A DNA stretch of 64,000 nucleotides from Candidatus Poriferihabitaceae bacterium (GTDB lineage Bacteria > Pseudomonadota > Gammaproteobacteria > Arenicellales > Poriferihabitantaceae), in assembly GCA_965243285.1 (NCBI GenBank), contig OZ251537.1:570387-634386 (forward strand). The letters are read 5' to 3'. This document shows, piece by piece, positions 4,372 to 21,706 of the stretch. A program made the position numbers and the translations under genes. Numbering within the stretch: position 1 is the first letter of the stretch; each line of letters begins with the position of its first letter. Under the pieces are notes generated by a model that was not told the DNA's origin, made no database searches, and saw only the letters and a list, made by a program, of their open reading frames with translations.

Positions 4372-5454
4372 TTACTTATTAGATTTTCGGCGGTTGCATT
4401 CCTTGCACAGCATTTGGCAATTTTCTTCGCTGGTTTTACCGCCTTCTGACCATGGCGTTACATGGTCGCCTTCCATATTATCTATGACGAACTGTTTTTT
4501 GCATTTTGGGCAATTCCCTTGTTGTTTTTCATACACTTTTTGTTTCATAGAATCGGTAAACGCCCGAAGGGACAGATGTTTTTCATCACGGGTTAAAATA
4601 TACGGATAAATGCCGCTAAGTTTTTTTACATCATCATCGGCGATCAATTTAGCGGTTTCTTTTTCTATCGCCTCTGGATCATGTTTTTTATCATGGCATT
4701 GGCGATATAGCGTTCCCCAATCCACCCCCTTCATGGGCTTTCTATAGGTAGTAAAAATCGCCTCCACCCATTCGATAACATCATTAAAATAGCCCCATAA
4801 TTCCAGGGCATTGTCATCGTGCTGGTGTTCGCCCATATAGGATTCTATTTTCCCATCGGACAGCCATTTGATAGCCGTTTCTAAATATTCTTGGCGAGAT
4901 GCGGCGCCTTTCAAATATTTTCCACCATTATCTTGAGCGGGGCAGTTGCTTTTACTAAAATAGGTTTTCGCATGAGTCACCCAAGAGCCTGAATAAACTG
5001 CATTTCTTAATTCTTGGTTTGTGAGTTCTTCGCCCGCTATATTAATCGTCTTAAACCAATTCAGTTTTTCGCTATCGGTTCCGCTACAAAAATAAACCAT
5101 CAATTTGTAGTTGAGAATTCCGACTTTCTCGTCATTTTGCAGGTTATGAAAACTTCTATCTTCAAAAGAAAATTTACGATTGACATACTGGCAAATCGAA
5201 ATAGTTCGCTGCTGTCCATCAATGATTTCATAATCGCCATCCTCCCGAACCGCCCAATACATAACATTGAGCGGGAAATCATTGATGACGGTGTTTATAA
5301 CAGCGTCTCTTTGTTTGCCGGTATAAATAAATTCGCGTTGATAGGGCGGGCGAATATCTAGCTTGCCACCATACCCGACCACGCCATCATCACCGCTGTC
5401 CTTATATCCGGCAACCAAATCTTTAACCGAAATTGCCTTTAGTTTGATTTTCAT
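4372..5454 (-). CDS. DUF262 (ParB-like/GmrSD N-terminal) + C-terminal HNH nuclease
   Basis: DGQQRTISI motif of DUF262. C-terminal CPKC...GDHVTPWSEGGKTSEENCQMLCKECNRRK is an HNH/zinc-ribbon. Start taken at MKIKLKAISV (5454), which overlaps the upstream MTase stop as ATGA. Confidence 0.8.
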   Translation of the reverse strand: MKIKLKAISVKDLVAGYKDSGDDGVVGYGGKLDIRPPYQREFIYTGKQRDAVINTVINDFPLNVMYWAVREDGDYEIIDGQQRTISICQYVNRKFSFEDRSFHNLQNDEKVGILNYKLMVYFCSGTDSEKLNWFKTINIAGEELTNQELRNAVYSGSWVTHAKTYFSKSNCPAQDNGGKYLKGAASRQEYLETAIKWLSDGKIESYMGEHQHDDNALELWGYFNDVIEWVEAIFTTYRKPMKGVDWGTLYRQCHDKKHDPEAIEKETAKLIADDDVKKLSGIYPYILTRDEKHLSLRAFTDSMKQKVYEKQQGNCPKCKKQFVIDNMEGDHVTPWSEGGKTSEENCQMLCKECNRRKSNK

Positions 5455-5711
5455 AGCATTTTGTTTTTGATGATAATGCGCCTGTATTTTGGCTTGCCAT
5501 TTATATCGGGGCCGCGACCTCGCCATTTAGGATATTCCATCCTATGGTCGTCCATCCCCAAGATATCAAATTGCTCGTGGTTGTATTTATCCATAAAACT
5601 AATGGGCACCCCCATAGCCCCTTTATAGTCCTTAGGGATGTATTCTGTTTTATCGACATTGATAGCGTCGTAGTTGTCATATTTTTGGTATTCCTCTCGA
5701 CTATATTTTCT
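5451..5711 (-). pseudogene. C-terminal fragment of an M.EcoRI-family N6-adenine DNA methyltransferase
   Basis: ...YSREEYQKYDNYDAINVDKTEYIPKDYKGAMGVPISFMDKYNHEQFDILG...KYRRIIIKNKML parallels the M.EcoRI C-terminus (SSYPKYDNYDAINVNKTKDIPLDYNGVMGVPITFLHKFNPEQFELI...YFRILIKNKRLQK). The upstream part is replaced by MITE sequence at 5712. Confidence 0.85.
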
Positions 5712-5912
5712 GGGGGGAGTCAAATCAGGCGGCTTTATCGCCTGATTTGGTGGGGGGCTGTTGATGTTGGTCTTTTTGTTTTTGGCTTTTAAATCTTCAA
5801 CTCATTAGCATTAATGAGGGGCAAGGTAAAAAGCAACAGCCAAGTCAAAAGCGAAAAGCCAAAACCAACCCCAACCCCAAACCCACCGTGCAGATTTAGG
5901 TATATAAATCCC
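5712..5912 (-). mobile_element. MITE half-copy (left arm with left TIR), truncated at an internal hairpin
   Basis: In reverse complement it starts GGGATTTATATACCTAAATCTGCACGGTGGG and ends ...CCTGATTTGACTCCCCCC. The outer flank at 5913-5920 is CTTAATTT when read in element orientation. Confidence 0.85.
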
Positions 5913-5948
5913 AAATTAAGCGTGTTATCCAAAATATTGCTACATTGA

Positions 5949-6215
5949 TTAGGGTTTAGCCATTTCTTTTGTGCCAGTAGGAATGGTGGAATTAAAAGAC
6001 GCAATCATATAACTCATGCTATCTTTTAATTTCACCAACTCGCCGTCGCTGAAAACACCGCCACGATTTATTTTAATGGCTAAATCGGGAAACATGCCCT
6101 TGCTCCTACACGACAGTAAACTGGTTTTATACGGGAATTTTTCAAGATTTTTTAAATCGCCAAAGTGCTTTTTTTGGGCGATTAAATCGGCAAAAAAATG
6201 GTAAATGGAATACAT
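5949..6215 (-). pseudogene. degraded ORF downstream of the PF01555-type MTase (possible cognate endonuclease remnant)
   Basis: About 89-aa ORF starting 12 bp after the MTase stop, AT-rich. It terminates about 35 bp before the MITE. Readable continuations exist only in other frames. The function call is inference from gene position. Confidence 0.3.
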
Positions 6216-6227
6216 GGCAATCAACCC

Positions 6228-7120
6228 TCAAGCGCTAAGAATATCCAGCGGCATGGGCGCGCCCCATATTATTTTTAATCCAGGGGTAAACACATAGTCA
6301 TTATAATAATCGCCAACGCAATCTCCGGCGCAGATATCATGCAGACGCGATTTTATGCACGCTACATTTTTTTTATCCAACTCAATGCCAATGTATTTGC
6401 GCCCGAGTTGTTTGGCTACGGTTAATGTAGTGCCTGTGCCGGCGAATGAATCTAACACTATATTATTATACTTAGATGACGATAAAATAATTCTCAACAG
6501 CAACGCAACTGGCGCCTGTTGTTTGTGAAACCGCGCGCCATCGGTTTGGCGAATGGCCTCTTTGCCGGCGAAAAACCCAGAAGTCAACTCTCTTATATCA
6601 TCCCAAACATCGGTCACGAAAATTCCATTTTCGCGTTTGAATTTATAATTCGCTGGCGGTTCTGGGTTTATTCGCAACCGATTAAAAATATTTGCCTTTG
6701 CGCCCTTGGTTGCATACACGATTACTTGATATTGCTTGCCGAATTTGCACGCCACCGGCACCGCTGAAGTTTTCTTTCGCCAAATAATTAAATTTTGGAA
6801 AGTCCAACCGGTTTCGCGCAATATGGTCATCACAAATTCAGCATTTTTTCGCGCTGCATAAAATAAATCGCGCCACCTGCCGTTGTGCAAGCGTAAATAT
6901 GTTGGCAAACATCCCGCATCATCCGCCCGTATTTTTCATCCTCCATTGCATCGTCATGCTTGGCATATTCCTGGCCTTGATTAAAGGGCGGGTCCATAAA
7001 AGTCAAGCCGATTTGATTGGCCGGCAACTGTTGCAGTCGGTCGCGACAATCGCCCAAATAAATCATGTCGGGGCGGAAGGTATCAAGATTTTTTATATTT
7101 TTCACGGGCCGATTTTTCAT
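6228..7120 (-). pseudogene. DNA methyltransferase (N4/N6, PF01555-like) with a frameshift in a homopolymer
   Basis: N-terminal part MKNRPVKN...LTFMDPPFNQG (motif IV) is in one frame (ends 6830). The rest, ...NAEFVMTILRETGW...LDSFAGTGTTLTVA (motif I), is in another. The frames meet at the T6 run 6844-6849. Confidence 0.75.
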
Positions 7121-7294
7121 GGCGGTTGCTGGAGGTATGTCGGCATGGAAAGCGGCCATACTACCATTAAAACCGCCCGAACGCATAAAACAGACATATA
7201 CAATGTATCCGTAATCATGCATGCGAATGGCGGCCGAATAAACCCGCGCAGCGCATCGATAATGATACCATTGCCGGCGATGGCGACTATAAAA

Positions 7295-8380
7295 ATGATC
7301 CGCGAAACCCGCGAGCTGGCCGAATTCATCGCCGCCGCCACGGCCAGCGGGTGGGCCGCGATGGACACCGAATTTTTGCGCGAGCGCACCTATTCGCCGG
7401 AGTTGTGCCTCATCCAAATCGCCCATGCGGACGCGGCGGCGTGTATCGACCCGCAGGCGGTGGAGGATTTATCGCCGCTCGGCGCGTTGTTGGCCAACCC
7501 CGCCGTGGTCAAAATTTTTCATTCTTGTCGGCAAGATCTCGAGGCCTTGGATACGCGCATGCCGTTGTGCGCCGCGGCGGTGTACGACACCCAGTTGGCG
7601 GCGGCGTTTTGCGGCTACGGCAGCCAAGCGAGCTACGCGGCGCTGGTGGCGGCGGTGTGCGCGGTGCATTTGCCGAAAACCCATACCCGCACCGACTGGA
7701 GTCGCCGCCCGCTATCGGCGGCGCAGTTGCAATACGCTATGGACGATGTCAAATATTTAGCGCCGTTGCGCCGCCACCTCGATGAGCTGCTAGCGCAACA
7801 CGGCCGCCAGCAGTGGCATCGCGATGAATGCGTCGCCGCCGCGCACCCAGCCAACTATCGCCCCGCTGCGGACCCATGGCAACGCTTGAAGGGCCTCGGC
7901 CGCCTCGATACCATGGGCCGCGCTTGCGCCCAGCGGCTAACCGGCTGGCGCGAGCAAAAAGCCCGCGACTGCAACCGACCGCGCGGCTGGATTCTGCCCA
8001 CACCGGCGCTGTTGGCAGTCTGCCGCCAGCGTCCGCGCACCATGGCTATGCTGGCGGAGGTCGACGATCTCAGCCCGGGCATCGTCAAAAACTCGGGGCG
8101 AGACATTTTGAACCTAGTCGAGCGCAGCGCCGCCGATGGTGGCGAAATGCGCGATGATTCCAGCACTCGGCCTGAACCGCTGAGCGCGGAACAACGCCAC
8201 CGCGTGAAAAAAATCATGGACTTGCTGGCGCGCCGGGCGGCGGAGACCGACATCAGCCAAGCGTTATTCGCCAACCGCCGCGAGGTCGAAAACTTCGTGC
8301 GCGGTGATTCCGAGCAGCCATTATTCCACGGCTGGCGCGCCCAACTGGCCGGCGATGAAATTCGCGCCGAGTATTCGTAG
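7295..8380 (+). CDS. rnd: ribonuclease D
   Basis: MIRETRELAEFI...AMDTEFLRERTYSPELCLIQIA (ExoI), HSCRQDLEAL and YAMDDVKYL are DEDDy motifs. Start chosen by alignment logic with E. coli Rnd; the longer ORF upstream overlaps the opposite-strand MTase. Confidence 0.85.
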   Translation: MIRETRELAEFIAAATASGWAAMDTEFLRERTYSPELCLIQIAHADAAACIDPQAVEDLSPLGALLANPAVVKIFHSCRQDLEALDTRMPLCAAAVYDTQLAAAFCGYGSQASYAALVAAVCAVHLPKTHTRTDWSRRPLSAAQLQYAMDDVKYLAPLRRHLDELLAQHGRQQWHRDECVAAAHPANYRPAADPWQRLKGLGRLDTMGRACAQRLTGWREQKARDCNRPRGWILPTPALLAVCRQRPRTMAMLAEVDDLSPGIVKNSGRDILNLVERSAADGGEMRDDSSTRPEPLSAEQRHRVKKIMDLLARRAAETDISQALFANRREVENFVRGDSEQPLFHGWRAQLAGDEIRAEYS

Positions 8381-8640
8381 GCCGGTCGATTATCCACACT
8401 AAGCGGCGGCGTTTTGTCAGTGGCGCCCTCCTTAGCTGGTGAAAATCCACCATCCAATCGGCCACTGAACCCTCGCCGCCCGATACAGCCGCCATCGGCG
8501 TCGATACCTCGTTATCGCATTGATTGAAACCGCGTTGTTTACTAAAATCGGCGGCTTATCGACGCTTAGCCATCGGCGGTTAGCGCATCGGCGCTGGCCA
8601 AAAAATCCCATTCGGTTGGTCTTATGTTTGTTTCAATTTA

Positions 8641-9198
8641 ATGTCAGCGCCCAGCGTCATCATCCTATCCGCGCCTTCCGGAGCCGGCAAAACCAGCCTA
8701 ACGCGAAAATTGGTCGCGCGACGGCCGGATGCGGCGGTGGTGGTTTCCCACACTACCCGCCCGCGGCGCGTTGCCGAAAAAGACGGCGTGGATTATTGCT
8801 TTGTCGACAAAGCGCGCTTCGAAGCGATGATCGCCGAGCGCAGTTTCATCGAATACGCCACCGTGTTCGGTCACTATTACGGCACTTCAGCGCAGGCGAT
8901 AGATGCGCTGATTTCCCGCGGCAAGCATGCTATTTTGGATATCGACTGGCAGGGCGCGCGCGCCGTGCGTCGCCAATATCCCCATGCCCAATCGGTGTTT
9001 GTCATGCCGCCTTCTCTTGGGGTGTTGGAACAACGCCTAAAATCCCGCCGCCAAGACGCCGACGAGGTCATCGCCGGACGCATGCGCGCCGCGCTGGACG
9101 AGATGAACCACCGCAACGAGTATGATCATGTCATCATCAATGATCGATTCGAGCGCGCCCTGGAAAATCTTGAAGCCATCCTGCCGGCGAATGGATGA
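8641..9198 (+). CDS. gmk: guanylate kinase
   Basis: P-loop [11 protein letters not shown], plus HTTRPRR and [12 protein letters not shown] motifs. Confidence 0.9.
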
Positions 9199-9283
9199 TG
9201 GTGCCGATTTATCGATAATGTTTAGCGATAATATTTATCGATGTTTTTTAATGTTTGATAATTTCAATTCCAGGAGAATCAAC

Positions 9284-9745
9284 ATGGCTCGCGTAACCGT
9301 GACTGACTGCTTAGCGCATGTCGACAATCGCTTTCAACTGGTGTTAGTCGCCTCCAAACGGGCGCGGCAACTGATCCTCGGCGCCGAGCCGCTGGTCGAG
9401 AGCAACCGCGATAAACCCACAGTGCTGGCATTGCGTGAAATCGCCGCCGGCCTGGTCGGGCCCTCCATCCTCGATGAGAAACCCATCGTCCCCGAATTGA
9501 GTTTCGACAACGACGAGGAATGGAATGAAAAACTGAATGATGAATTGATCAGTAAATTGAGCGACGAGCTGGAGAATCAACTGGACGACGAGCCGAACGC
9601 CGACGCCGATGCCGACGCCGATGCCGACGCCGATGCCGATGCCGACGCGGAAAGCCACCCGCCGCGCGGCGCATCGCTTGCGGACGATGCCGACCCATCC
9701 ACCGAAACCGCGGCCGCGGGCGAGCCGCCGTTAAGCCGCCGATGA
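9284..9745 (+). CDS. rpoZ: RNA polymerase omega subunit with long acidic C-terminal extension
   Basis: [30 protein letters not shown] is canonical RpoZ. GGAG-containing RBS upstream. gmk-rpoZ-spoT synteny. Confidence 0.9.
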
Positions 9746-9836
9746 AAACATAGCCGGCGCACGCGTCGCCCAAACCCTTGGGCGGCGCGCCCGACGGTTG
9801 GTCGTAGCGGCCGCGGTGGCGGCGCCGCGGGTGCCC

Positions 9837-12062
9837 ATGCAAAAAATCGCCATGCGCGGAATCGCCAGCAGAATCCCCTACCTCAGCCCCAGCCGCCCGG
9901 CGCTTGGCCGCTCTCCCCCTAGCCGAAATCGCATCGGCAAACCGCTGAGCGAACAAGCCGCCATCGACGATCTCATCGGCGAACTGGCGACCTACCTAGA
10001 CGCCGACGCCATCGCCAACATTCGCGAGGCGTGCCAATTCGGCATCGCCGCCCACGCCGGGCAAGTGCGCGAAAGCGGCGAAGCCTACATCCACCACCCG
10101 CTGGAGGTGGCGCGCATTCTCGGGCAAATGCGCGCCGACGGGCGCACCATCATCGCCGCCATTTTGCACGATGTGGTCGAAGACACCGCCATCACCCTGG
10201 CGCAACTGATGGCGCGCTTCGGCGATGATGTCGGCATGTTGGTGGACGGCGTCAGCAAGGTGGACGAGTTGGAACAGGAATCCAAAGCGCATGCCGAGGC
10301 GGCCTCCTTTCGCAAAATGTTCACCGCCATGTCCACCGATTATCGGGTGATTTTCATCAAATTATCCGACCGCCTGCATAACATGCGCACCCTAGGCTCG
10401 CTGCGAGAGGAGAAAAAACACCGCGTCGCCCGCCAAACCTTGGAGATTTACGCGCCCATCGCCGACCGCCTCGGCATGCGCGAATTGGCGCTGGAGTTGG
10501 CTGATTTAAGTCTGTTTAACTTAGACCCAAAACGCTATCGGGCCATCGCCAAAACCCTCAGCGCCAACTCGCGGCGGCGCCAATCCACCCTCGACGAATT
10601 GTGCGTCCACCTGAAACATGCTTTAAGCAAAGCCGGCCTCGAGGCGCGGGTGCATGGCCGCGAAAAAGAGATTTACAGCATTCATCGCAAGATGCGCCAA
10701 CAACACCTAGCGCTCAAAGATCTCCAGGACATCAACGCCATTCGCGTGGTCACCGAAAATCGCCTGCAGTGTTACCAAGCGCTCGGCATCATCCATCAGC
10801 TCTACAAACCGCGCCCGAGCAAATTCAAAGACTATATCGCCATCCCCAAAGCGAACGGTTATCAGTCGTTACATACCGTGGTCATCGATTCCATCGGGCG
10901 GCCGGTGGAGGTGCAAATCCGCAGCGACATGATGGATAAGGTGGCGAAAAACGGCCTCGCCTCGCACATCATGTATGAGATGGCGGCCACCGGCGAACAC
11001 GCCCCGGAGAAGTTAATGCGCACCGCCATCGATAACATTCTCGAATCGGCGCGCAAATCCCAAGACTTCGAGGAGTATTTCGAGAACTTGAAGGCCGAAC
11101 TGTCGCCGGACGCGGCCTATGTTTTCACTCCCAAAGGCGACATCAAGCGCCTGCCATGGGGCGCCACGGTGCTGGATTTCGCCTATGCGGTGCACACCGA
11201 CATCGGCCAGCGCTGCGTGTCGGCGCGCATCGGCCAACACATCGCCGCCGTGCACCAGGTATTAAAAGGCGGCGAGACCATCGAGATAATCACCTCGCGC
11301 ACCCGCCAGCCGCAAAAAAAATGGCTGAAATACGCGGTCACCTCCAAAGCGCGTTCGTCGATTCGCCATTTTCTCAATCAACAAAACGACAAAGAGGCCT
11401 TCACCCTCGGCCGCAAATTGCTAAAACAAGCGCTGCACGCCCAAGGCTACCGCCGCATGCGCATTCCCAGCGCGCATAAATTGGCGCTGCTGAAACATTT
11501 GCGGGTGGATGATTGGCGACCGTTGGTGCGCGACATCGGCTATGGCAAACGCGTGCCGGGGTTGGTGGCCAAGCAACTCATCGCCGAAAATCGCAGCGCC
11601 ACCGAGGCCGTGCCAACGCCGCCGGCGGCCATGATTATCGAAGGCACCGAGCGCCTGATGGTGACTTTCGCGCATTGCTGCCACCCGATTCCCGGCGACA
11701 AAATCACCGGCATCATGTTAAGCGGCCGCGGCCTCACCGTGCATCGCGCGCAATGCGTAAACCGCAAGGAAATCACCCCCCACATGGAAAATTATCATGA
11801 TTTAGCGTGGGCTGAAAACGCCAAAGGAAAATTCCAAGTGATGTTGCAAGCCGACCTCCACAACCGCCCCGGCGCCATCGCATCCATCAGCAGCGTCATC
11901 GCCCAACACAACTCCAACATTTACAACATCCAACTAGGCGAACCGCACCACGACATCATCAGCGTGCGCCTCGCCATCGAAGTGATCCACCGCCCGCACC
12001 TCGCCGCCATCATGCGTCAACTGCGGCATGAAGATTCCGTCATCAAACTGGCGCGTCCATGA
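9837..12062 (+). CDS. spoT: bifunctional (p)ppGpp synthetase/hydrolase
   Basis: HD hydrolase (HHPLEVARIL...HDVVEDT), synthetase (YIAIPKANGYQSLHT), TGS and ACT regions are collinear with E. coli SpoT. Start codon uncertain (ATG at 9837 or 9852; the ORF opens at 9798). Confidence 0.9.
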   Translation: MQKIAMRGIASRIPYLSPSRPALGRSPPSRNRIGKPLSEQAAIDDLIGELATYLDADAIANIREACQFGIAAHAGQVRESGEAYIHHPLEVARILGQMRADGRTIIAAILHDVVEDTAITLAQLMARFGDDVGMLVDGVSKVDELEQESKAHAEAASFRKMFTAMSTDYRVIFIKLSDRLHNMRTLGSLREEKKHRVARQTLEIYAPIADRLGMRELALELADLSLFNLDPKRYRAIAKTLSANSRRRQSTLDELCVHLKHALSKAGLEARVHGREKEIYSIHRKMRQQHLALKDLQDINAIRVVTENRLQCYQALGIIHQLYKPRPSKFKDYIAIPKANGYQSLHTVVIDSIGRPVEVQIRSDMMDKVAKNGLASHIMYEMAATGEHAPEKLMRTAIDNILESARKSQDFEEYFENLKAELSPDAAYVFTPKGDIKRLPWGATVLDFAYAVHTDIGQRCVSARIGQHIAAVHQVLKGGETIEIITSRTRQPQKKWLKYAVTSKARSSIRHFLNQQNDKEAFTLGRKLLKQALHAQGYRRMRIPSAHKLALLKHLRVDDWRPLVRDIGYGKRVPGLVAKQLIAENRSATEAVPTPPAAMIIEGTERLMVTFAHCCHPIPGDKITGIMLSGRGLTVHRAQCVNRKEITPHMENYHDLAWAENAKGKFQVMLQADLHNRPGAIASISSVIAQHNSNIYNIQLGEPHHDIISVRLAIEVIHRPHLAAIMRQLRHEDSVIKLARP

Positions 12063-12088
12063 CGGAAATTATCAATAGGCTAATTAAT

Positions 12089-12831
12089 GGGATTTATATA
12101 TCTAAATCCGCACGGTGGGTTTGCTTTTGATTTTGGCTTTTGCTTTTGCTTTTGCTTTTGGCTTTTGGCTGTTGATCTTCACTCCCCCCGCTTCATCATG
12201 AGGGGGAGTCAAAACTGGCATCTTTTTCGCCAGTTTTGGTGGGGGGTTTTGATCTGGCTTTCGCTTTTGATGTTGATTTTCGCTTTTCGCTTTTGATTTT
12301 GGCTTTTGCTTTTTTGTTTTTGCCTTTAAATCTTCAACTCATTAGACCAAATGAGGGCAAGTAAAAATCAAAAGCGAAGTCAAAAGCGAAGTCAAAAGCG
12401 AAAAGCAACAGTCCCCCCACCAAATCAGGCGATAAGGCCGCCTGATTTGACTCCCCCCAGATGAAGCACGGGGGGGAGTAAAGCGTTAAAAGCCAAAGCC
12501 AAAAGCAAAAGCCAAAGCAAAAGCCAAAGCCAAAAGCAAAAGCAAAAGCCAAAGCAAAAGCAAAATCAAAAGCTAACATCAAAAGCCAAATCAAAAGCTA
12601 ACATCAAAAGCTAACATCAAAAGCACCCCCCACCAAAACTGGCGATGTAGCCGCCAGTTTTGGCTCCCCCCTAAAAAGATAGGGTGGAGCGAAGCCTTAA
12701 CAGCAACAGCAAAAGCAAAAATCAAAATCAAACGCCAAAATCAAAAGCAAAAATCAAACGCAGCCGCCCTAAATCAGTCGCTGACCTCAAAAAAACGCCA
12801 ATCGAACTGCAGATTTAGGTATATAAACCCC
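12089..12831 (+). mobile_element. full-length MITE-like element (743 bp)
   Basis: Left TIR GGGATTTATATATCTAAATCCGCACGGTGGG. Right end ...CCCTAAATCAGTCGCTGACCTCAAAAAAACGCCAATCGAACTGCAGATTTAGGTATATAAACCCC. T-rich GCTTTT arm, central TTAAATCTTCAACTCATTAG module and A-rich AAAAGC arm. No ORF of coding quality. Confidence 0.85.
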
Positions 12832-13109
12832 AAAACAAAAGCCAAAGCCAAAGCCAAAAAGCAAAAGCCAAGTCAAAATCAAAAGGCCCCCCACCAAAAC
12901 TGGCGAAAAAGCCGCCAGTTTTGACTCCCCCCAGATGAAGCACGGGGGGGAGTAAAGCGTTAAAAACCAAAGCCAAAGCCAAAGCCAAAGCCAAAACCAA
13001 AACCAAAGCCAAAACCCAAAGCAAAAATCAAAGCCAAAGCAAAAATCCAAAAAACAAAATCGCCCCCCCAATAGCAACCTACCAATGGGGATTTAGGTAT
13101 ATAACTCCC
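12832..13109 (+). repeat. MITE-related fragment with variant right end, abutting the previous element
   Basis: AAAAGC-type arm plus a hairpin module, ending ...TAGCAACCTACCAATGGGGATTTAGGTATATAACTCCC. No left TIR. Confidence 0.7.
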
Positions 13110-13139
13110 TAAATTTTCATGGCGGTCTTGCATGAATAA

Positions 13140-13634
13140 ATGAATCCGCATCGCATCGACATCCACCTCCCCAGCCAGCGTTTGGAGTTGCGTGCGGTCG
13201 CGCAGCCGGACATACCGTTGCGGGTGTACGCCATCTCCAGCGCCGCCAATGGCTGCGGCGAGATCATGCACAGCGAGCGCACGCCGCGTGGCCGCCACCT
13301 CATTCGCGCCAAAATTGGCGCCGGCGCGCCCTTGGGCAGCGTGTTCGTCGGGCGGCGGCGCAGCGGTGAAATATTCAGCGCGCAAGCCCGCGCCGCGGCC
13401 CCAAACCGTGATTGGATATTGACGCGCATCCTGTGGCTGAGCGGCTGCCAGCCGGGCTTCAATCGCTTAGGCGCGGTGGACACCATGCGCCGCTACATCT
13501 ACCTACACGGCGCCGCGGACGATGTGGAAATGGGGCAAGCCGGCTCGCGTGGCTGCATTCGTATGCGCAATGATGAGATCGCCGAGTTGTTCGATTTAGT
13601 CGACATCGGCACGCCGGTACATATCCATGGTTGA
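13140..13634 (+). CDS. L,D-transpeptidase (YkuD) domain protein
   Basis: C-terminal LHGAAD...GQAGSRGCIRMRNDEIAELF is the YkuD catalytic H...GC(I/V)R motif. Confidence 0.75.
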   Translation: MNPHRIDIHLPSQRLELRAVAQPDIPLRVYAISSAANGCGEIMHSERTPRGRHLIRAKIGAGAPLGSVFVGRRRSGEIFSAQARAAAPNRDWILTRILWLSGCQPGFNRLGAVDTMRRYIYLHGAADDVEMGQAGSRGCIRMRNDEIAELFDLVDIGTPVHIHG

Positions 13635-14727
13635 AATGGCCAGCGCCACTTCCCCTACCGCCGCAACCGTATCGAAGCCGAGCCAACTCCCTCTCGGCCC
13701 GCTGATGGTGGATGTGCGCGGCGCCGAGTTGCGCGCCGAGGAGGCGGATTTTTTGCGCCATCCGGCGGTGGGCGCGGTCATTTTGTTCGCCCGCAACTGC
13801 CATGAGCCGGCGCAGGTGGCAGCCCTGACGCGCGCCATCCATGCCTTGCGCGCGCCGCCGTTGTGGGTGGCGGTGGACCAAGAGGGCGGGCGCGTGCAGC
13901 GCTTGACTAACGGGTTTTATGCCTTGCCGGCCGCGGCCCGCCTCGGCGCGCTATACGACCGCGACCGCGAAATGGGGGTGGCGATGGCGAGTGCCGCCGG
14001 CTGCCTGATGGCGGCGCAAGTGCGCCAAGTGGGGGTGGATTTCAGTTTCGCGCCGGTGTTGGATTGCCAGCGCCCGGGCAGCCAAGTATTGGGCGACCGC
14101 GCCTTTCACGCCCAACCGTCGAGCATCTGCGCCATCGCCGGGGCCTACATCGCCGGCATGCGCCGCGCCGGCATGGCCGCCACCGCCAAACACTTCCCCG
14201 GCCACGGCGGCGTCGAGGCCGACTCTCACACCGAACTGCCGGTGGATTCGCGTCCCTTATCGGCCCTGAAAAAACGCGATTTATGGCCTTTTGCGCAGTT
14301 GGCCGACCAACTCGGCGGCGTGATGACCGCGCATGTGTTGTTTGGCAAAATCCATGCCGATTTACCCACCTACTCGCCCTTTTGGCTGCGCGACATTTTA
14401 CGCACCCGACTCGGCTTCGCCGGCGTCATTTTTAGCGATGACTTGAGCATGAAAGGCGCCGCCGGCCATCTTGCCAACCCGGCCAGCAACCTCGCCGCCG
14501 ACGATGGCAACCTTGGCATCCGCGCCCAACGCGCCTTAGCCGCCGGCTGCGATATGGCGTTGATTTGCAACGCCCCAGAAGCCGCGCGTCGCGCCGCCGA
14601 CCACTTAGGCCAGCAACATCGCCCCGACTCATCCCGCTTAGCCGCCATGCAAGCCCGCGCCGCCGACATACCCACCGCCGAATTAGCCAAAATGGCGACA
14701 GATTTAGACCGCGAATTGCCCGCCTAA
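13627..14727 (+). CDS. nagZ: beta-N-acetylhexosaminidase (GH3)
   Basis: LMVDVRG..L..EEADFLRHP, VDQEGGRVQRL and KHFPGHGGVEADSH motifs of NagZ. Confidence 0.85.
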   Translation: MVEMASATSPTAATVSKPSQLPLGPLMVDVRGAELRAEEADFLRHPAVGAVILFARNCHEPAQVAALTRAIHALRAPPLWVAVDQEGGRVQRLTNGFYALPAAARLGALYDRDREMGVAMASAAGCLMAAQVRQVGVDFSFAPVLDCQRPGSQVLGDRAFHAQPSSICAIAGAYIAGMRRAGMAATAKHFPGHGGVEADSHTELPVDSRPLSALKKRDLWPFAQLADQLGGVMTAHVLFGKIHADLPTYSPFWLRDILRTRLGFAGVIFSDDLSMKGAAGHLANPASNLAADDGNLGIRAQRALAAGCDMALICNAPEAARRAADHLGQQHRPDSSRLAAMQARAADIPTAELAKMATDLDRELPA

Positions 14728-14739
14728 ACCATCCCAAAC

Positions 14740-14850
14740 TCGCTAAACCGACATTTCAGCCAAATTTCAGCCAAATTCGATCAAATTCGACCAAATTTAA
14801 GCGAAATTTACCGAATTTCACCTAAATTCACCGATTTTCCGTCAACTCCA
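14740..14850. repeat. phased A/T-tract array (10-11 bp period)
   Basis: CAGCCAAATTT CAGCCAAATTC GATCAAATTC GACCAAATTTA AGCGAAATTTA CCGAATTTCA CCTAAATTCA CCGATTTT, lying between convergent nagZ and the RND gene. Confidence 0.8.
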
Positions 14851-14867
14851 TCGCCATCCCCGCCACC

Positions 14868-17800
14868 TCACCCCCTTCTCCCCCGCCAAGCCGTACGAAT
14901 GCCCGCGTCGGCATTCTCATACACCAACAACAGCGACGGAATCACAATCAACACCAGCAGCGTGGCGAAGGCCAAGCCGAAGGCGATGGTGGTGGCCATG
15001 GGGATGAGAAATTGCGCCTGCAGCGAGGTTTCGAACAACAGCGGCGACAAGCCGGCGATGGTGGTGAGCGAGGTGAGCAGCACCGCCCGCAGGCGGCGGC
15101 AGGCGGCTTCGATGACGGCTTCGCGCGCCGCCCATCCGCGCCCGCGCAGGCGCTTGTAGAACACCACCAGGATGATGGAATCATTGACCACGATGCCCGA
15201 GAGCGCGAAAAAGCCGAACAGCGACAGCACCGTGACCTCCTGCCCCATCAGCACATGCCCCCACACCGCGCCGACCAAGCCGAACGGGATGACGGCCATC
15301 ACCACCACCGGTAAGCCGTACGAGCCGAACACCCACGCTAATACCAAGTAAATCAGCGCCAACGCCAGCAGCAGCCCGGTCTGCATATCGCCCAAGGTTT
15401 CGGTTTGCTCGGCGGCGCGGCCGCCGAATGAAAATTCCACGCCGTAGCGGTCAGCCAGTTGCGGCAAGATATCGGCCTCGAGGGCGGCGCGGATGCGGCC
15501 GGCGGTAGCGATGGTGTGGTCCACGCTGGCGGTGACGGTGATGCTGAGTTTGCCGTCCACATGCAGAATCGACTCGAAACCGCGCTCGGCGCTTAGGTCG
15601 ACTAAATTGCCTAACGGCGCGGCGTTGCCACCGGGCAGCACGATGGGAACTTGCGCCAAGCCACCCAGGGTGTCGCGCTCGGCCGGCGGCAGCGACACCC
15701 GCACCGTGATATCGCGATAGCCGTCCGACAATTCCAGTGCCTCGTAGCCGGTGTAGGCGGCGCGCAACTGGCGCGACACCTCGTCCACGCTCAGGCCCAG
15801 CGATTCGGCGGTGGGGGTGAGGCGCAGCAGCCATTGTTCGCGGCCATAGGGTGAATCATCGCCGATGCCGTTGACCCCGGGGATGGCCGCCAGCGCCGCC
15901 TGCAGTTGTAGCGCGGCCTTTTTTACCCGGGCGAGGTCGGGGCCGGAGATTTCGAGGTCGATATCCCGCCCCGGCGGGCCGGCTTGGGGTTCTAAGATAG
16001 CCAGGCTCTCGAGGCCCGGCCGCGGCGGCAGTTTGCTTTGCCAGGCGGCAATTAAATCTCGATTGCGGGTGTTTCGTTGGTCGGAATCCACCAACTCGAC
16101 GCGCACCCGGCCGGTGTGTTCGCCGTGGTGATGCAGCAATATCATGGCGATGAATGGTTCGCCGGATTCGGCCTCGATTTCGCCCATGGCGGCGGCCGCT
16201 TGCGCCAAATAATCGGTCACCGTGTCCGGCGGCGTGCCGGCCGCAAAACCGACTTGCGCGTATACCTGATTGCCCTCGCCCAACGGAAAAAAATGGAAGC
16301 CGATGCGCCCGGCTTGCATCCAGCCGAAGGTGAGGATGAGCGCCGCCGCCGCCGCCGCCAAAGTACTCCAGCGATGCCGCACCGCCAGGGTCAGCAGCGG
16401 GCGAAACCACGCCTCGCGAAATTGCGCGAAGGCGGCATCCAAAGCGCGTCGGGCGCGTTTTGGGCGATATTCGCCCAGGCTGCGAAAGGAATGCGTCAGA
16501 TGCCCCGGCAAAATCAAAAAACACTCGACCAGCGAAGCCACAATGATGCAAATCACCACCGTTGGAATCGCCCGCATGATGGTGCCGATGATGCCGCCCA
16601 CCAGCAGCAGCGGCATGAAGGCGGCGATGGTGGTCAGCGACGATGCGCACACCAGTCCGAGCATGCGGCGCGCCGCTTTCTCCGAGGCCGCGCTGGGCGC
16701 GGCGCCGCGTTCGTATTGCGACATGGCTTCCTCGCCCACCACGATGGCGTCGTCTACGATGATGCCGAGCGCCATAATCATGCCGAACAGGCTGATCATG
16801 TTGAGCGAGCCGCCGACCAAATACAGCGCCGCCATGGCGCCCATAAAGGACACCGGAATGCCCACCGCGGTCCACCACGCCACCCGCCCGTTCATAAATA
16901 AAAACAGGATCAACACCACCAACAATAGGCCGCCGAGGCCGTTTTTCAGCAATAGGTCGATGCGCTCGCGCAGCAATTCCCAGCTTTGGTTGTACGGCAA
17001 CAGCGCCACGCCCGGCGGCAAAGTCGGGCGCGTCTCGCGCAGCCAGTCGCTGAAAATAGTGGCGGCCTCGAGGCTGTCGCCGCCGGCGGCGCGGCGCAAC
17101 GACATACGCACTGCCGGGCCGCCGTTATGGGTGATGGTGGGCTGGCCGGTGGCCGCTTTGCGCTCGATGTGGGCGATGGAACCTAAGCTCAGCAGCCGCC
17201 CACCGGAGGCCGCCACCGGCACCGATTCGAACGCCAGCGCGGTTTGCCGGCGCTCGCGAAAACGCAGCTGCCGCGACACTTCGGCCTGCCCGACCACGCC
17301 CACCGGCGCGTCCTTCGACCACGCCGCCACCCGCCGCCCGATAGCGTCCAGCGACAGCCCCAGCCGGCGCAGCTGGTGGGATGGGATTTCGATGGCGATT
17401 TCCTCCTTCGGCAGCCCGGTGATTTGAATCGAGGCGATGCCGCGCGCCAGCAATTCGCGCTCAAAGCGCCGCACTAACGGGCGCAAATCATCGATATCGG
17501 CCGGCCCGGCGACCAGCAAACTGGCGATCTCCTCGTAATTTTGCAGCTGAGCGACGCGCGGCCGTTCGCTGCCCTCGGGCAAACCGCTGGCGGCATCCAC
17601 CTGCGCCTTGACGCGCGCCACCGCCAGTTCGATGTCGGCATCTTCGGCAAATTCTAAGGTGATGCGCGAATTCGCCTCGCTGGAGGTCGAGGTGATGCGT
17701 TTGACCGCATCGATGGCGCGCAAATCTTGCTCCAGCGGGGTGGTGATCAGGGCCTCGATATCGCCGGCGCTGGCGCCGCGCCACAGCGTGGTAACCGACA

Positions 17801-17980
17801 CCCTATCGACGCTAAAACTGGGGAAAAACTGGGTGTTGAGTTGCTTTACGCCCCAAACCCGGCCAGCAGCAACATCGCCATCAATAAATTCGCCGCCACC
17901 GGATGGTTGCAGAAAATGCCGAGCAAGCCGCCTCGGCTGGTGGCGCCGGCCTGGTCTTCGGTCTGGCGTGGCTCGCTCAT
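14868..17980 (-). pseudogene. RND (AcrB/HAE1-like) efflux transporter, N-terminal TM1 in a different frame (frameshift or sequencing error)
   Basis: The 1048-aa ORF has RND 12-TM architecture, but its first ~55 aa are Arg-rich nonsense. The true N-terminus MSEPRQTEDQAGATSRGGLLGIFCNHPVAANLLMAMLLLAGFGA is read from ATG 17980 and hits TAA at 17846-17848. The frames meet at the G-run near 17850-17860. Confidence 0.8.
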
Positions 17981-18213
17981 GGCGTCGTCCGTGGCGCGTC
18001 CATGTCCATGGCATCGCGCGGCGGCGTCATACGACGGTCATCACAACCGAAGCGGTGATGATTAATTAAGGTGCCGATGGTCGACATGTAATAGGTTTAA
18101 TCGAGGTACTGCCGTGGCCGGCAAAACGCCATCGCACGCCCTAAAAGTTGGGCCGGGAATGCCGCGCAAATTGCCGCTCATGCTCATGCGCATGCTGCTC
18201 GCCGACCTCCACA

Positions 18214-19515
18214 TTACCGCGCCACCCGCACTTTCAAGCCGTCCACGGCTTGCGGCAGGCGCGAGTTCAGCACTTGGTCGCCGGCCGCAAAAGCTGCGGC
18301 GGCGATGATCAATTTAGGCGGCCCGGCGCCGTCATGCACCAGCCCCAAGCGGCGCACCTCGATGGCTTGCAAAACGCCATCGCGCACCCGAAAAACTCGG
18401 TCGTTGCCGTATAGCGAATCGGTCGGCAACAGCACCACATTGTCGACCGGCGGCAATTCCAGATGCATCTCCAGCGCCTCGCCCAGCGCCGGCAGCGGCC
18501 CTTGGGCGACGCGGAAAAACCCATCGATGCCGCTTTGCCCGGCCACCACATTGGCCGCCAAACGGTGCAGCGTCAGGGTGATAGCGGCGCCGTTGGCATC
18601 GGCGGCGGCGGTCACCGCCTGGCGCGCATCGACCGCCTGGCGCAAGGCCGGCAGATGCGCGGCCGGCACTTGGGCCCGCACTTCGAGCTGGGAATCATCG
18701 TACATGCGCAGCAGCGGGCTGTTGGGCGCGACGCGATCGCCCTCGGATACCAGCACCTCGAGCACGCGCCCGGTGAATGGCGCCAACACGCGGCTTCGCG
18801 CTTGGGCGCGCTCGGCTTGTTTGAGGGCCGCGGCGGCGCGCTGGCGACGCGCTTGCAATTGGCGGCGGCGGGCGCCGGCCTCGTCGATGGCCAAGCGGCG
18901 TTTGGCTAAATCCAACAGGCGGCGTTGTTCCACCTCGCGGGTTTGGTCTAACGCGGCCTCGCTGCCGGCTTGGGTGCGCGCCAGTTGCTCGGCGCGCTGC
19001 ACGGCGCGGCGCGCCAGGGCGAGCAGGGCTTGCTCCGCCTGCAGCGCGGTTTGGTCGGCTTGTAGTCGAATGTGGTCGCTGTCGATGCGCGCCGCCGCTT
19101 CGGCCAGCTCGCTGCGGCGCTGCAAGACCACCAGCGCCGCATCGGCGTCGTCCAACACCATCATCTCTTGCCCGCGTTGCACGGCGGCGCCTTCGAGGGC
19201 TTTGATGGCGACGACATCGGCCTCGATGCCAGCCGTCAGCACGCTGGTGCGCGGCGATTCCACCTGCCCAAAAACCCGCAGCATGGGCGAGGCGGTGGTC
19301 GGCGACACCACCTGCACCGATACCACCGGCGCCCGGTCTGCGCTCGGCGGCGCCGGCGGCGGCTCGCCGGTGGCCGAAAATAGCGCCACCGCCACCGCGG
19401 CCAGCAACAGAATCAACAGCGGCACGCCGATTTTTCGCAACCACTTTTTGGCGTCGAGCTTGGTTAATCGACTGGTGTTGCGCCAGGATGATTCGGGCAT
19501 GGGTTTTGGCGGCAA
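18214..19515 (-). CDS. efflux membrane-fusion (HlyD/periplasmic adaptor) protein
   Basis: N-terminal TM anchor, long Ala/Arg/Gln coiled coil, then ...VLAPFTGRVLEVLVSEGDRV. Lies directly upstream of the RND pump. Confidence 0.8.
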   Translation of the reverse strand: MPPKPMPESSWRNTSRLTKLDAKKWLRKIGVPLLILLLAAVAVALFSATGEPPPAPPSADRAPVVSVQVVSPTTASPMLRVFGQVESPRTSVLTAGIEADVVAIKALEGAAVQRGQEMMVLDDADAALVVLQRRSELAEAAARIDSDHIRLQADQTALQAEQALLALARRAVQRAEQLARTQAGSEAALDQTREVEQRRLLDLAKRRLAIDEAGARRRQLQARRQRAAAALKQAERAQARSRVLAPFTGRVLEVLVSEGDRVAPNSPLLRMYDDSQLEVRAQVPAAHLPALRQAVDARQAVTAAADANGAAITLTLHRLAANVVAGQSGIDGFFRVAQGPLPALGEALEMHLELPPVDNVVLLPTDSLYGNDRVFRVRDGVLQAIEVRRLGLVHDGAGPPKLIIAAAAFAAGDQVLNSRLPQAVDGLKVRVAR

Positions 19516-19543
19516 TATCCGCGGTGTTTTCTAGCAAAAGTTA

Positions 19544-19590
19544 GGGCGTTATATACCTAAATCCGCACGCGCGGTTTGCTTTATCCGCAT
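19544..19590 (+). repeat. solo MITE left-end remnant
   Basis: GGGCGTTATATACCTAAATCCGCACGCGCGGTTTGCTTT resembles the left TIR plus the start of an arm. No partner end. Confidence 0.55.
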
Positions 19591-19768
19591 CGACTGCCCG
19601 GTCCGCATCACTAAAAATAAAACTTAAAAGATTAACTAAACCACCATGGCAACCCGACGGAAAACACCACCCCATTTAAGCGGATTTAAGCCAGCAACTC
19701 CCCTGAATTAAAGCATGCCAAATTTTTAACCACGCCATTGTTGCATCGACTTATATAACGCAAAAGAA

Positions 19769-19843
19769 TGGATTTATATATCTAAATCAGCCGCTGACCT
19801 CAAAAAAACGCCCATCGAACTGCAGATTTAGGACTATAAATCC
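19769..19843 (+). mobile_element. 75-bp minimal MITE derivative
   Basis: TGGATTTATATATCTAAATC joined directly to AGCCGCTGACCTCAAAAAAACGCCCATCGAACTGCAGATTTAGGACTATAAATCC. Flanked by identical GCAAAAGAA at 19760-19768 and 19844-19852. Confidence 0.8.
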
Positions 19844-20079
19844 GCAAAAGAACATGGTTTTAATCGACCGTGGCGATGCGGTTTTAAGCGGCGCTGCTGG
19901 GCGGTGATGGTTACGCCGGATGAAACGATGCCGATTTTTCGCTTGCCGGCTAGTGCCATGGCGGCCCAATCACATCGACCATCGCCATCATCGCCATTCA
20001 CCAACCCGGCATTTCCTGCGCCATTCGAAGCAGCGGCGGCATTATACAATACGCCGAGCCGCCGCTTAAATATCAGCCC

Positions 20080-20706
20080 ATGCCCGCCGCCGCCATCGAC
20101 CGCTACCTGCAACCCTTCGCTGGCCGTCGGGTTACGTTGCTCGGGCCGATGCTGACCGCGACGCCGCCGCGCCGCGCCCTCGAGGAACCGTTGATTTGGG
20201 TGGATGGCGGCGCCGACTTTTCGGCCGGACACGGCGGTTTGTCGGTGGGCGATGGCGATTCGGCGCGCCGCCCATTGCAACAACGCTTGCCGGCGAACAA
20301 AGATTATTCCGATTTGGCTTATGTGTTGCGGCGCTTGCCGGGGAATTTTCGCGAGGTAGTGTTGCTCGGTTTTCTCGGCGGGCGGCGCGACCATGAGCTC
20401 TTCAATTTCGGCGAAGTGCACCACTTTTTGGCCGCGAAAACGCACACCCAGGCGCGCTTCGAACGCGCCGCTTACGGCTATTCCCAAGGCGAGTGGCGCT
20501 TTTGCGCGCATGGCGTGTTCAGCCTGGCGACCTTTGCGGCGACCACGGCGACGCTGCTCGGGGCGTGCGAATTCCCCTTATCGACGCCCACCGAAATCCG
20601 GCCGCTCACTTCCTTAGGCTTGAGCAATCGCGGCTACGGCGACATCACCTTGCGCGCCCACGGGCCGGTTTTCATCTTCCACCCGAACGGCGCTTCGGCT
20701 GAATAA
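20080..20706 (+). CDS. thiamine pyrophosphokinase-like protein
   Basis: GDGDS, KDYSDL and GGRRDHE motifs in the order seen in TPK enzymes. Confidence 0.55.
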   Translation: MPAAAIDRYLQPFAGRRVTLLGPMLTATPPRRALEEPLIWVDGGADFSAGHGGLSVGDGDSARRPLQQRLPANKDYSDLAYVLRRLPGNFREVVLLGFLGGRRDHELFNFGEVHHFLAAKTHTQARFERAAYGYSQGEWRFCAHGVFSLATFAATTATLLGACEFPLSTPTEIRPLTSLGLSNRGYGDITLRAHGPVFIFHPNGASAE

Positions 20707-20761
20707 TTTGCCCCGCCCTGATTCGCTGCCGCCCTGATTCGCTGCCGTCTTGATTCGCGCC

Positions 20762-21652
20762 ATGCCCGATTTATTCGACTTCGCCGCCCCATCCAATCAC
20801 TTTGCGGTGCTGGGCAATCCGGTTGCGCACAGCCAATCGCCGCGCATCCACCAATTATTCGCCCAGCAGTTCGCCCTCGACCTCGACTATCGCCGCATCC
20901 AAGTCGATGTCGGCGGTTTTGCCCAGGCGGTCAGCCACTTTGCCGCCCACGGCGGCGCCGGGCTGAATATAACCCTGCCGTTCAAGGTGGAGGCGTGGCG
21001 GTTGTGCCGTCAGCCAGGCAACCAGATGAGCGACCGGGCCGGCCGCGCCGAGGCCGTCAATACATTGCGGTTCGCGCCCGACCAGAGCGTGTTCGGCGAC
21101 AACACCGATGGCATCGGCATGCGCCGCGACCTCGAAAACAACCTCGGCCTCGCCATCGCCGGCAAGCATGTGCTGCTGTTAGGCGCTGGCGGGGCGGCGC
21201 GTGGCGTGCTCGGGCCCTTGGCGCAGCGCCGCCCGGCCAGCCTGCGCATCGCCAATCGCACCGCCGATAAAGCGCAGGCGCTGGCGGCGCGCTTCAGCCT
21301 CGCCGGCGAACACGGCGACTCCCAGCCGGTGCGCGGCTACGGCTACCAGCGGCTCGCCGATGCGGCGCCCGACTGGCCGGCTTTTGACCTCGTCATCAAC
21401 GCCTCGGCCGCCAGTTTGGCCGGTGAACTGCCGGATTTGGGCGCCCTGCGCCTGGCCGCCGATAGCCTCGCCTATGATTTGATGTACGCCGCCGAGCCCA
21501 CCGTATTCATGCGCTGGGGGCAAGCCCATGGCGCGCGTTTGGTCAGCGACGGGCTGGGCATGTTAGTGGAGCAAGCGGCCGAGTCATTTAATCTATGGCA
21601 TGACCGACGCCCGGATTCGGCCGCGGTGATTCGCGCCTTGCGGGGCGTTTGA
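20762..21652 (+). CDS. aroE: shikimate dehydrogenase
   Basis: FAVLGNPVAHSQSPRIH, NITLPFK, NTDGIG and GAGGAARG motifs. Confidence 0.85.
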   Translation: MPDLFDFAAPSNHFAVLGNPVAHSQSPRIHQLFAQQFALDLDYRRIQVDVGGFAQAVSHFAAHGGAGLNITLPFKVEAWRLCRQPGNQMSDRAGRAEAVNTLRFAPDQSVFGDNTDGIGMRRDLENNLGLAIAGKHVLLLGAGGAARGVLGPLAQRRPASLRIANRTADKAQALAARFSLAGEHGDSQPVRGYGYQRLADAAPDWPAFDLVINASAASLAGELPDLGALRLAADSLAYDLMYAAEPTVFMRWGQAHGARLVSDGLGMLVEQAAESFNLWHDRRPDSAAVIRALRGV

Positions 21653-21706
21653 AATCCTGCCGGCATCGAAATCCCCCCTTATATCCTTCGAAAATTCGCG
21701 CAGCCC

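Follow-up and report, generated by a model that had tools for sequence, protein, structure and literature searches.

What kind of element are the G6/C6-flanked hairpin modules that recur in a 64,000-nt stretch of the genome of Candidatus Poriferihabitaceae bacterium (assembly GCA_965243285.1, contig OZ251537.1, positions 570,387 to 634,386, the whole of which is referred to below as the window), and is it their folding that selection preserves? The question was raised by the intergenic region around 12170-12250, where a reading of the sequence alone had described the modules and had taken paired changes in their stems as the sign of a selected DNA or RNA structure. This sequence-only reading had missed two things, namely that the modules are a family spread over bacterial classes and that, in the window, they lie in a mosaic bounded by terminal inverted repeats (TIRs) and target-site duplications (TSDs). 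In our judgement the unit is probably a selfish, structure-dependent repeat of the type of the repetitive extragenic palindromic (REP) sequences, their REPIN doublets (REP doublets forming hairpins) and the Rickettsia palindromic elements (RPE), a divergent relative of the Rfam family whalefall-1, amplified here as the cargo of a local miniature inverted-repeat transposable element (MITE) and by recombination among its copies.

Architecture of the double-hairpin unit

Read on its C-rich strand, the unit (about 50-70 bp) consists of a C6ACC head, hairpin A (AAA-stem-loop-stem-TTT), a single G and hairpin B, the latter made of (R)CTC5-6, a loop and G5-7AG(Y). The window contains 15 full or near-full copies and several fragments, all of them intergenic, with up to four units in a single intergenic region and in mixed direction relative to the neighbouring genes (antisense in 25391-26054, sense in 45062-45586). 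The words that make up the unit occur far beyond expectation: CAAAACTGGCG was found 15 times in the window and CAAATCAGGCG 8 times, against 0.06 expected for each, ACTCCCCCC 14 times against 0.16, and the composite CCCCACCAAA-N14-44-TTTGRCTCCC 14 times against 0.

The layout proposed in the sequence-only reading, ACTCCCCCC-N12-GGGGGAGT-C-stem/loop/stem-GGTGGGGGG, matched the copy at 12181-12246 exactly; this copy reads ACTCCCCCC-GCTTCATCATGA-GGGGGAGT-C-AAAACTGGC-ATCTTTTTC-GCCAGTTTT-GGTGGGGGG, in which GCTTCATCATGA is the N12 loop. The loop of hairpin B is not always 12 nt long, as that layout had implied, but ranges from 3 to 13 nt in the window, where a third type of hairpin B, ACTCCCCGC-CCA-GCGGGGAGT, also occurs. 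Four versions of the hairpin-A stem (V1-V4) do exist, as had been claimed, that of V3 at 25542 having 13-16 bp, but their pairing is not perfect throughout: V4 at 34856 pairs only in part, through 7 outer pairs and an inner 4-bp helix, and the V1 copy at 62818 carries indels. V1 and V2 are each combined with the same types of hairpin B, and the copies are thus a mosaic of hairpin-A and hairpin-B variants.

Distribution in other bacteria

A scan of 185,579 species-representative genomes with a degenerate pattern returned at least 73 loci. Genuine two-hairpin units could be parsed from about 58 loci among the matches listed, and several others were chance matches devoid of hairpin B. Among the matches listed, the host records bear the titles Gammaproteobacteria metagenome-assembled genome (MAG; dozens of contigs), Pseudohongiella, Pseudohongiellaceae and Arenicellales, as well as several Rickettsiales MAGs, an 'Azospirillum' MAG and Alphaproteobacteria UBA998. 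The unit is compact in these bacteria (49-54 nt), with the form CCCCCCACC-AAA-stem-loop-stem-TTT-G-(R)CTCCCCC-TCAA/GCAA-GGGGGGAG(Y). A covariance model (R1) built from 22 copies, all from outside the window, recovered 15 window copies with E-values from 2.5e-12 to 4e-4, and the window modules are therefore homologous to this cross-class family.

Two arrangements recur. Single units in gammaproteobacterial genomes often stand directly after stop codons, and inverted doublets, head-to-head or tail-to-tail, were found at loci L001, L003, L012, L033, L034, L041, L049, L050, L052 and L069 and, in the window, at 12181/12413 and 62586/62818. In the doublets of alphaproteobacterial MAGs the hairpin-A stems differ between the two halves. 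Among 2.9 million viral contigs there were 3 matches, all of them chance matches without hairpin B, indicating that the element is not phage-borne. An all-vs-all BLAST of the open reading frames (ORFs) of all loci gave, as recurrent neighbour families, only clusters of translated repeats and common families, and full-text literature searches with the conserved sequence strings returned unrelated primers only.

The bit scores that follow for individual window copies are those of model R1. V1 units (stem AAAACTGGCG) lie on the minus strand at 12181-12246, the copy named in the sequence-only reading (54.0 bits, E 4.4e-12; z-scores of -4.9 and -5.5 for the two strands folded as DNA), at 24394-24458 (43.4 bits) and at 45401-45466 (54.9 bits, E 2.5e-12), and on the plus strand at 12626-12690 (43.4 bits; hairpin B of the type GCTCCCCCC..GGGTGGAGC), 12887-12953 (49.2 bits), 25688-25746 (52.6 bits; hairpin B ACTCCCCGC-CCA-GCGGGGAGT), 25792-25856 (36.1 bits), 34737-34801 (43.4 bits) and, in degenerate form, 62818-62886 (22.8 bits). 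V2 units (stem AAATCAGGCG) are found on the plus strand at 12413-12479 (48.7 bits), in a head-to-head doublet with 12181-12246 across an expanded spacer, and on the minus strand at 45156-45213 (51.2 bits; hairpin B again ACTCCCCGC-CCA-GCGGGGAGT), at 62586-62652 (48.7 bits) and at 5712-5757, where the unit is interrupted in the loop of hairpin B by the inversion breakpoint 5711/5712 (match 5700-5757, 29.2 bits). The V3 unit, with its long stem AAATCAGCCCGAG..., occupies 25542-25611 (+; 34.8 bits, fold z -7.2) and the V4 unit, with its imperfect hairpin A, 34856-34929 (+; 23.6 bits). Word matches also revealed a truncated unit at 30574-30593 (+), reduced to the C6ACC head and the left arm of hairpin A. 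Solo hairpins B stand at 28187-28216, where T-rich hexamer arrays give way to A-rich ones (partial match to model positions 32-52), and at 61583-61611, in the centre of a 207-bp MITE.

Conservation of pairing and folding

A covariation check was run on an alignment (A1) of 22 compact 52-nt copies, all from outside the window, and supported the claim of the sequence-only reading. In A1, 98.9% of the cells were paired; the three AAA/TTT pairs were invariant, five inner pairs of hairpin A each showed 3-4 Watson-Crick types, and the closing R..Y pair of hairpin B was GC in 11 and AU in 10 sequences. The covariation score was 0.48, compared with 0.107 +/- 0.018 in shuffled alignments (0/500 of which reached 0.48) and with at most 0.127 in controls with slid partners. 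More than 25 distinct hairpin-A stems were found in other genomes, every one of them pairing. Across genomes, therefore, the statement that paired changes keep the stems intact stands, both by these stems and by the covarying closing pair of hairpin B.

Within the window the same statement draws on no more than about 3-4 founder subfamilies, which is the case that the sequence-only reading had itself feared. The window copies alone had 98.1% of their cells paired, with five pairs changed on both sides, and G/C positions in hairpin B had also changed in a compensatory way (CCCCGC/GCGGGG). Where hairpin A is 27 nt long (nine of the window copies), substitutions were seen at 7/63 loop positions and at 0/180 stem positions (p = 6e-5). 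An asymmetry of wobble pairs, as a guide to RNA versus DNA and to the functional strand, could not be called from so few non-Watson-Crick pairs.

Folded as single-stranded DNA, the units gave z-scores from -4.9 to -7.2, with both strands equally good; the exception was V4, the fold of which (34856) was no better than its shuffles (z -1.27). The 299-nt stretch 12181-12479, which holds the doublet, folded as a single long structure (z -12.1). The compact doublet folded with a z-score of -10.8 into an outer stem formed by hairpin B and hairpin B' and three hairpins, namely A', a central G6/C6 stem and A, the middle one being GGTGGGGGG/CCCCCCACC. By way of the outer B/B' stem and the central G6/C6 stem, every conserved G run has a C-run partner in this fold.

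Relation to whalefall-1

The nearest described family is whalefall-1 of Rfam (RF01762, gathering score 37 bits). A search of the whole window with Rfam at gathering threshold returned RNase P only, and the E-value mode (E <= 10) gave no whalefall-1 for 12060-13140, where only spurious matches to miRNA precursors appeared because of the long inverted repeat. The related C6/G6 copies tested from other bacteria scored 19-26 bits against RF01762; one of these, in a Rickettsiales MAG (L012), was aligned by cmscan to the full model, positions 1-56, at 25.6 bits, which is below threshold. Two neighbouring inverted copies in the same MAG (L069, 4918-4971 and 4998-5054) reached 45 and 41.4 bits, above threshold, and represent a more canonical whalefall-1 variant. 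One Rickettsiales MAG thus holds both true whalefall-1 matches and C6/G6 units.

By score, the window copies fall outside RF01762; in architecture they agree with it, save for their longer loops. Whalefall-1 resembles the G-rich strand of the unit, in that a C/U-rich/G-rich hairpin with a loop of 4-5 nt (UCUCCCC/GGGGAGA in whalefall-1) is followed by a linker of 1-2 nt, a variable covarying hairpin and a purine-rich tail in which the 3' arm of that first hairpin recurs. It differs in its stems (UCUCCCC/UCCCUCC as against C6/G6 in the unit); the AAA/TTT frame is confined to the C6/G6 variant, and the loops in the window are much longer.

In the main text and summary table of its original description, whalefall-1 is known solely from whale-fall metagenomes, is classed as a non-coding RNA and is described as a small RNA (sRNA), not as a multi-copy repeat within genes (Weinberg et al. 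2010, PMC2864571). The supplementary seed alignment of the same paper has 12/16 RF01762 sequences in six inverted pairs, 33-57 nt apart on shared contigs, each pair consisting of two subtypes, a doublet organisation of which the passages on the motif in its main text and summary table make no mention. In the literature searched, the name whalefall-1 was used by the original description alone.

Doublets within genes of other bacteria

In alphaproteobacterial MAGs several doublets lie within long ORFs, with Pfam domains on either side. Insertion limits were set by alignment to solved structures. The doublet adds 48 residues between positions 603 and 606 of E. coli MutS (L052) and 56 residues at residue 161 of PheS (L041), and in UvrD (L003) 75 residues replace the 8 residues 466-473 of the E. 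coli protein, each of these insertions being in frame; LysRS-I provides a further in-frame case in the relatives' loci. The NCBI annotation of the PheS gene (P0121) runs through the insert. These in-frame inverted doublets in MutS, PheS and UvrD indicate that the family behaves like selfish palindromic DNA of the REPIN/RPE type and not like a single-copy sRNA. Spanning ORFs of DksA (L050) and IGPS (L002) were also considered as in-gene insertions and were rejected, since in both cases the units precede the Pfam domains and probably also the true start codon.

The PheS loop after FYLxG (L041 5151-5270, L078 ~619-738, L079, L080) may be empty or hold a C6/G6 doublet, a whalefall-1-like doublet of equal length or an unrelated palindrome of the GGCCAGAGG type. 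Many homologues are empty at this loop (356 aa), and the closest PheS relative (81% identical) has a different palindromic insert there. In L078 a whalefall-1-like doublet occupies the same codon as the insert of L041 and has exactly the same total length; all of its stems are different and all are paired, including hairpin B, GCCCACCC/GGGTGGGC. The two inserts represent either one old insertion with compensatory evolution or independent hits. In the related Alphaproteobacteria this surface loop of PheS thus either attracts palindromic insertions, as a hot spot, or tolerates them, as a permissive site.

The enclosing MITE mosaic

The units of the window are never alone but always lie within arrays of hexamers (CAAAAG, CCAAAG, CAACAG, CAACAT and some 12-mers), which, on the strand that gives C6ACC for the neighbouring unit, are always rich in A. 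Such arrays were noted at 12130-12180, 12480-12625, 28075-28165, 34570-34640, 37040-37170, 45240-45390 and elsewhere, and about 12 copies of the 12-mer GTGGCTTTTGAT occur in them; slippage and a by-product of element propagation are both possible origins. The mosaic is bounded by a TIR of 19-31 bp, GGGATTTATATA(C/T)CTAAATCTGC..., of which there are 14 ends (M1) in the window, and its combination of TIRs with direct 8-bp TSDs is that of a MITE. Modules are present in at least 14 of the window's intergenic regions, and most of the long gaps are occupied.

Complete elements can be delimited. The MITE at 61516-61722 consists of a TIR, T-rich hexamers, hairpin B, A-rich hexamers and a TIR, and has the TSD TAAATAAA, and that at 62457-62940 (TSD TAAATAAG) carries two units (62586, minus; 62818, plus) around an M2 centre, the small central hairpin CCTTTAAATCTTCAAC... 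around which the larger MITEs hold one unit per arm; left and right arms of the MITEs mirror each other. A member of the same family without a G6/C6 hairpin lies at 57829-58043 (TSD TTTTTTAT / TTTTTTAG), and a further MITE at ~19770-19843 (TSD GCAAAAGAA). In the intergenic mosaic at 12089-13109, between spoT/relA and a YkuD-family gene, four units and hexamer arrays occur together with three M1 ends and, at 12323, an M2 centre; this mosaic has no matching TSD and is therefore probably made of fused or rearranged elements. The RNase P RNA, class A, lies at 28307-28663 (-; 330 bits) and adjoins a mosaic in which a solo hairpin B is accompanied by a degenerate MITE end.

The MITE family is lineage-specific. 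Its ends, the hexamer arrays and the AAACGTTAAAAGCC module were absent from the other loci checked (L001-L074), the 19-mer of the MITE end had 0 matches in JGI metagenome contigs, and no autonomous partner element was found. In the nearest relative (L074) the genes follow the same order and ArgG is 82% identical, as against about 73% for the named relatives (Ca. Spongiihabitans, Inmirania). Its DUF2064 gene is separated from the Lip_A_acyltrans-family (lipid A acyltransferase) gene by a spacer of 58 nt, compared with a mosaic of 508 nt in the window, and its 21-kb locus contains no unit. Near its argG stands a gene homologous in type to that for a 1361-aa autotransporter-like protein with a He_PIG Ig domain, which is found at 53659-57744 (+) in the window.

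An inversion with one breakpoint in a hairpin loop

The sequence-only reading had placed an inversion breakpoint, 5712/23489, in the loop of a hairpin, and this proved correct. An EcoRI-type adenine methylase is present in two halves, one being the ORF 22881-23488 (+) and the other running on the minus strand from 5708 downward, and when joined they gave one uninterrupted match to PF13651 (profile positions 43-345, E 1.2e-107). The methylase pseudogene spans 22750-23488 (+) and 5708 down to ~5455 (-), with an in-frame TAA and a frameshift near its 5' end. The breakpoints, 5711/5712 and 23488/23489, define an inversion of about 17.8 kb; one of them is in the loop of hairpin B and the other inside the methylase pseudogene. 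At 23489 the methylase abuts GGGGGAGT-AAAACGTTAAAAGC..., the 3' arm of hairpin B, and at 5712 it abuts ...TTTGACTCCCCCC, the 5' arm. The right half of a MITE, beginning with the 3' arm GGGGGAGT, lies at 23489-23617 (+), adjoining the N-terminal half of the methylase (22881-23488), and the rest of the left half of the same MITE, with arrays, M2 centre and TIR, lies at 5758-5912 (-; TSD CTTAATTT). Once 5712-23488 is re-inverted, the methylase gene is rejoined and the MITE is complete, its flanks showing a perfect 8-bp TSD, CTTAATTT, the copies of which, at 5913-5920 (minus strand) and 23618-25, match only after re-inversion. To judge from the letters at the junctions, these would be compatible with AG microhomology. 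This single inversion suggests that hairpin-B loops are prone to break; to call the structures fragile or recombinogenic sites in general, as had been proposed, is to build on one event.

Genes for restriction-modification and defence are unusually numerous in the window (2538-3680, 4372-5526, 6228-6908, 38332-39249, 45587-50023 and 61815-62501). They encode an AAA_21 ATPase, a GmrSD/HNH nuclease, two N6_N4 methylases, a 1478-aa helicase-methylase fusion and an MT-A70 methylase, and several adjoin repeat mosaics.

Comparison with known repeats

The family shares with REP sequences and REPINs the short, high-copy palindromes, the inverted doublets, the keeping of structure over sequence, the lack of target duplication and the frequent position downstream of genes, and, as in REPINs, its inverted doublets fold as one structure (z -10.8 and -12.1). 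It differs from them in having two different hairpins per unit, doublets inside ORFs and no 5' GTAG/GTGG tetranucleotide: GGTGG lies 3' of both hairpins on its strand, and the 5' side is C6ACC.

The RPE are said to have been described by Ogata et al. in 2000. The likeness to them resides in palindromic repeats inserted in frame in housekeeping genes with the reading frame kept, which applies to MutS, PheS and UvrD of the relatives and not to the window, the copies of which are intergenic. The present elements are GC-rich and RPE are AT-rich, so that identity with an RPE consensus is unlikely, and their hosts are others, including Gammaproteobacteria. The subject of RPE is treated in PMC1779305.

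The double-hairpin or repetitive hairpin-forming elements of fungal and sponge mitochondria are likewise short, mobile-looking hairpin repeats that swell intergenic regions, the sizes of which differ strongly between close relatives; these are organellar and unrelated in sequence, and the likeness is one of analogy only (PMC2800124). With bacterial MITEs, which have TIRs and TSDs and a DDE transposase acting in trans, the window mosaic shares TIRs of 19-31 bp and TSDs of 8 bp; the double-hairpin unit itself differs from them in showing no TSD, and no autonomous partner was found.

Interpretation

If the unit is a selfish repeat as proposed, selection would act on its ability to fold and not on the sequence of stem A, which is why stem A varies between copies and genomes yet always pairs. 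In single-stranded form the doublet would fold as an outer B/B' stem with three hairpins, and a structure-specific enzyme would presumably recognise this folded single-stranded DNA, the elements themselves being putatively without host function. The units are embedded in a MITE with TIRs and 8-bp TSDs, and the local number of copies has therefore probably grown by transposition of the MITE together with recombination or conversion between copies. A bolder form of this proposal, which we regard as doubtful, is that whalefall-1-like doublets are an unrecognised kind of structure-dependent mobile DNA without TSD, encoded protein or GTAG, present in Alpha- and Gammaproteobacteria and inserted in frame in permissive loops of essential genes, with the hairpin-B loop as the site at which strands are broken and joined; the orphan Rfam sRNA would then be its footprint, and the inversion 5712/23489 a by-product of cleavage.

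Several observations weigh against a selfish, structure-dependent repeat. No direct repeat was seen beside single units or doublets in the flanks of L010, L011, L017, L054, L012, L052 and L069, nor any conserved target sequence of the unit or doublet in the loci compared; filled and empty PheS loops, set side by side, gave an ambiguous picture of a duplication. With IS608 TnpA and E. coli RAYT (REP-associated tyrosine transposase) sequences as queries, phmmer found no Y1/RAYT-like ORF in the window and in loci L001-L073, which cover a few percent of each genome, and no transposase or recombinase tied to the repeat was found in the window or the fetched loci. With an ArgG identity of about 82%, even the nearest relative is too distant for filled and empty sites of this genome to be compared directly. 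Palindromes can, moreover, be kept perfect without selection, by template switching or hairpin-templated repair, and whalefall-1 was scored 'RNA: Y', that is, as certainly RNA, from covariation and tetraloops, in the summary given by its authors (PMC2864571).

This last score is also one of the grounds for taking the units to be genes for structured RNA or cis-elements (a whalefall-1-like sRNA, a processing or stability signal or a terminator), with covariation arising from selection on an RNA fold. The covariation extends to both helices, the architecture is common to the units and RF01762, and gammaproteobacterial single units often directly follow stop codons. Against this, the two strands fold equally well, units stand in both orientations relative to genes and in numbers of up to four per intergenic region, and the family includes inverted doublets and copies inside ORFs. 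A scan of the mosaic region found no promoter-like sites beyond chance, and 12000-13200 had 4 terminator-like sites, as against 2.8 +/- 1.5 in shuffles, none with hairpin A or B as its stem. We consider an RNA function unlikely. The paired changes might instead be a mutational by-product, whereby intrastrand template switching or hairpin-templated repair perfects the palindromes and gene conversion spreads the variants with no selection for structure. The few founder stems within the window, the mosaic shuffling of hairpin-A and hairpin-B variants and the mirrored left and right arms of the MITEs all fit such a process, and template switching could contribute to the 'compensatory' pattern. As a full account it is quite unlikely, leaving unexplained why the AAA/TTT frame, the C6ACC head and hairpin B are constant across classes around a free stem A, and why different stems are kept in the two units of one doublet.

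It is very unlikely that the units are REP-like architectural sites recruited by the host (for gyrase, IHF or nucleoid proteins), or cruciform insulators between genes, and are kept for its benefit: they are intergenic here, in most long gaps, and the neighbouring phased A-tract hexamer arrays could bend DNA, but a relative with the same gene order is entirely without them and essential genes are interrupted by them in other bacteria. The suggestion that the G6 runs act through intermolecular G-quadruplexes had its basis in runs of 6-7 G, present twice per unit, and appears to us highly improbable. For each G run there is a complementary C run, either in the same unit or in the other unit of the doublet, with which it is predicted to pair, in the hairpin-B stems or the central stem of the doublet; with two G tracts per unit, four close tracts on one strand are not available, and the compensatory changes in hairpin B, both in L078 (GCCCACCC/GGGTGGGC) and in the window, fit a duplex and not G-tetrads.

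Significance

As a repeated, probably mobile palindromic DNA element, an Rfam family orphaned since 2010 and known from environmental sequences would acquire a likely biological identity and actual host taxa, and the insertions in MutS, PheS and UvrD indicate that RPE-like, in-frame colonisation of essential genes is not limited to Rickettsia. For the present genome, the mosaics explain why intergenic regions are several-fold longer than in the syntenic relative, and they make hundreds of bp per gap unsuitable for mining promoters, sRNAs or CRISPR-like arrays. The inversion of about 17.8 kb with its breakpoint in a hairpin loop offers, in addition, a concrete and testable lead on how such repeats reshape a genome.

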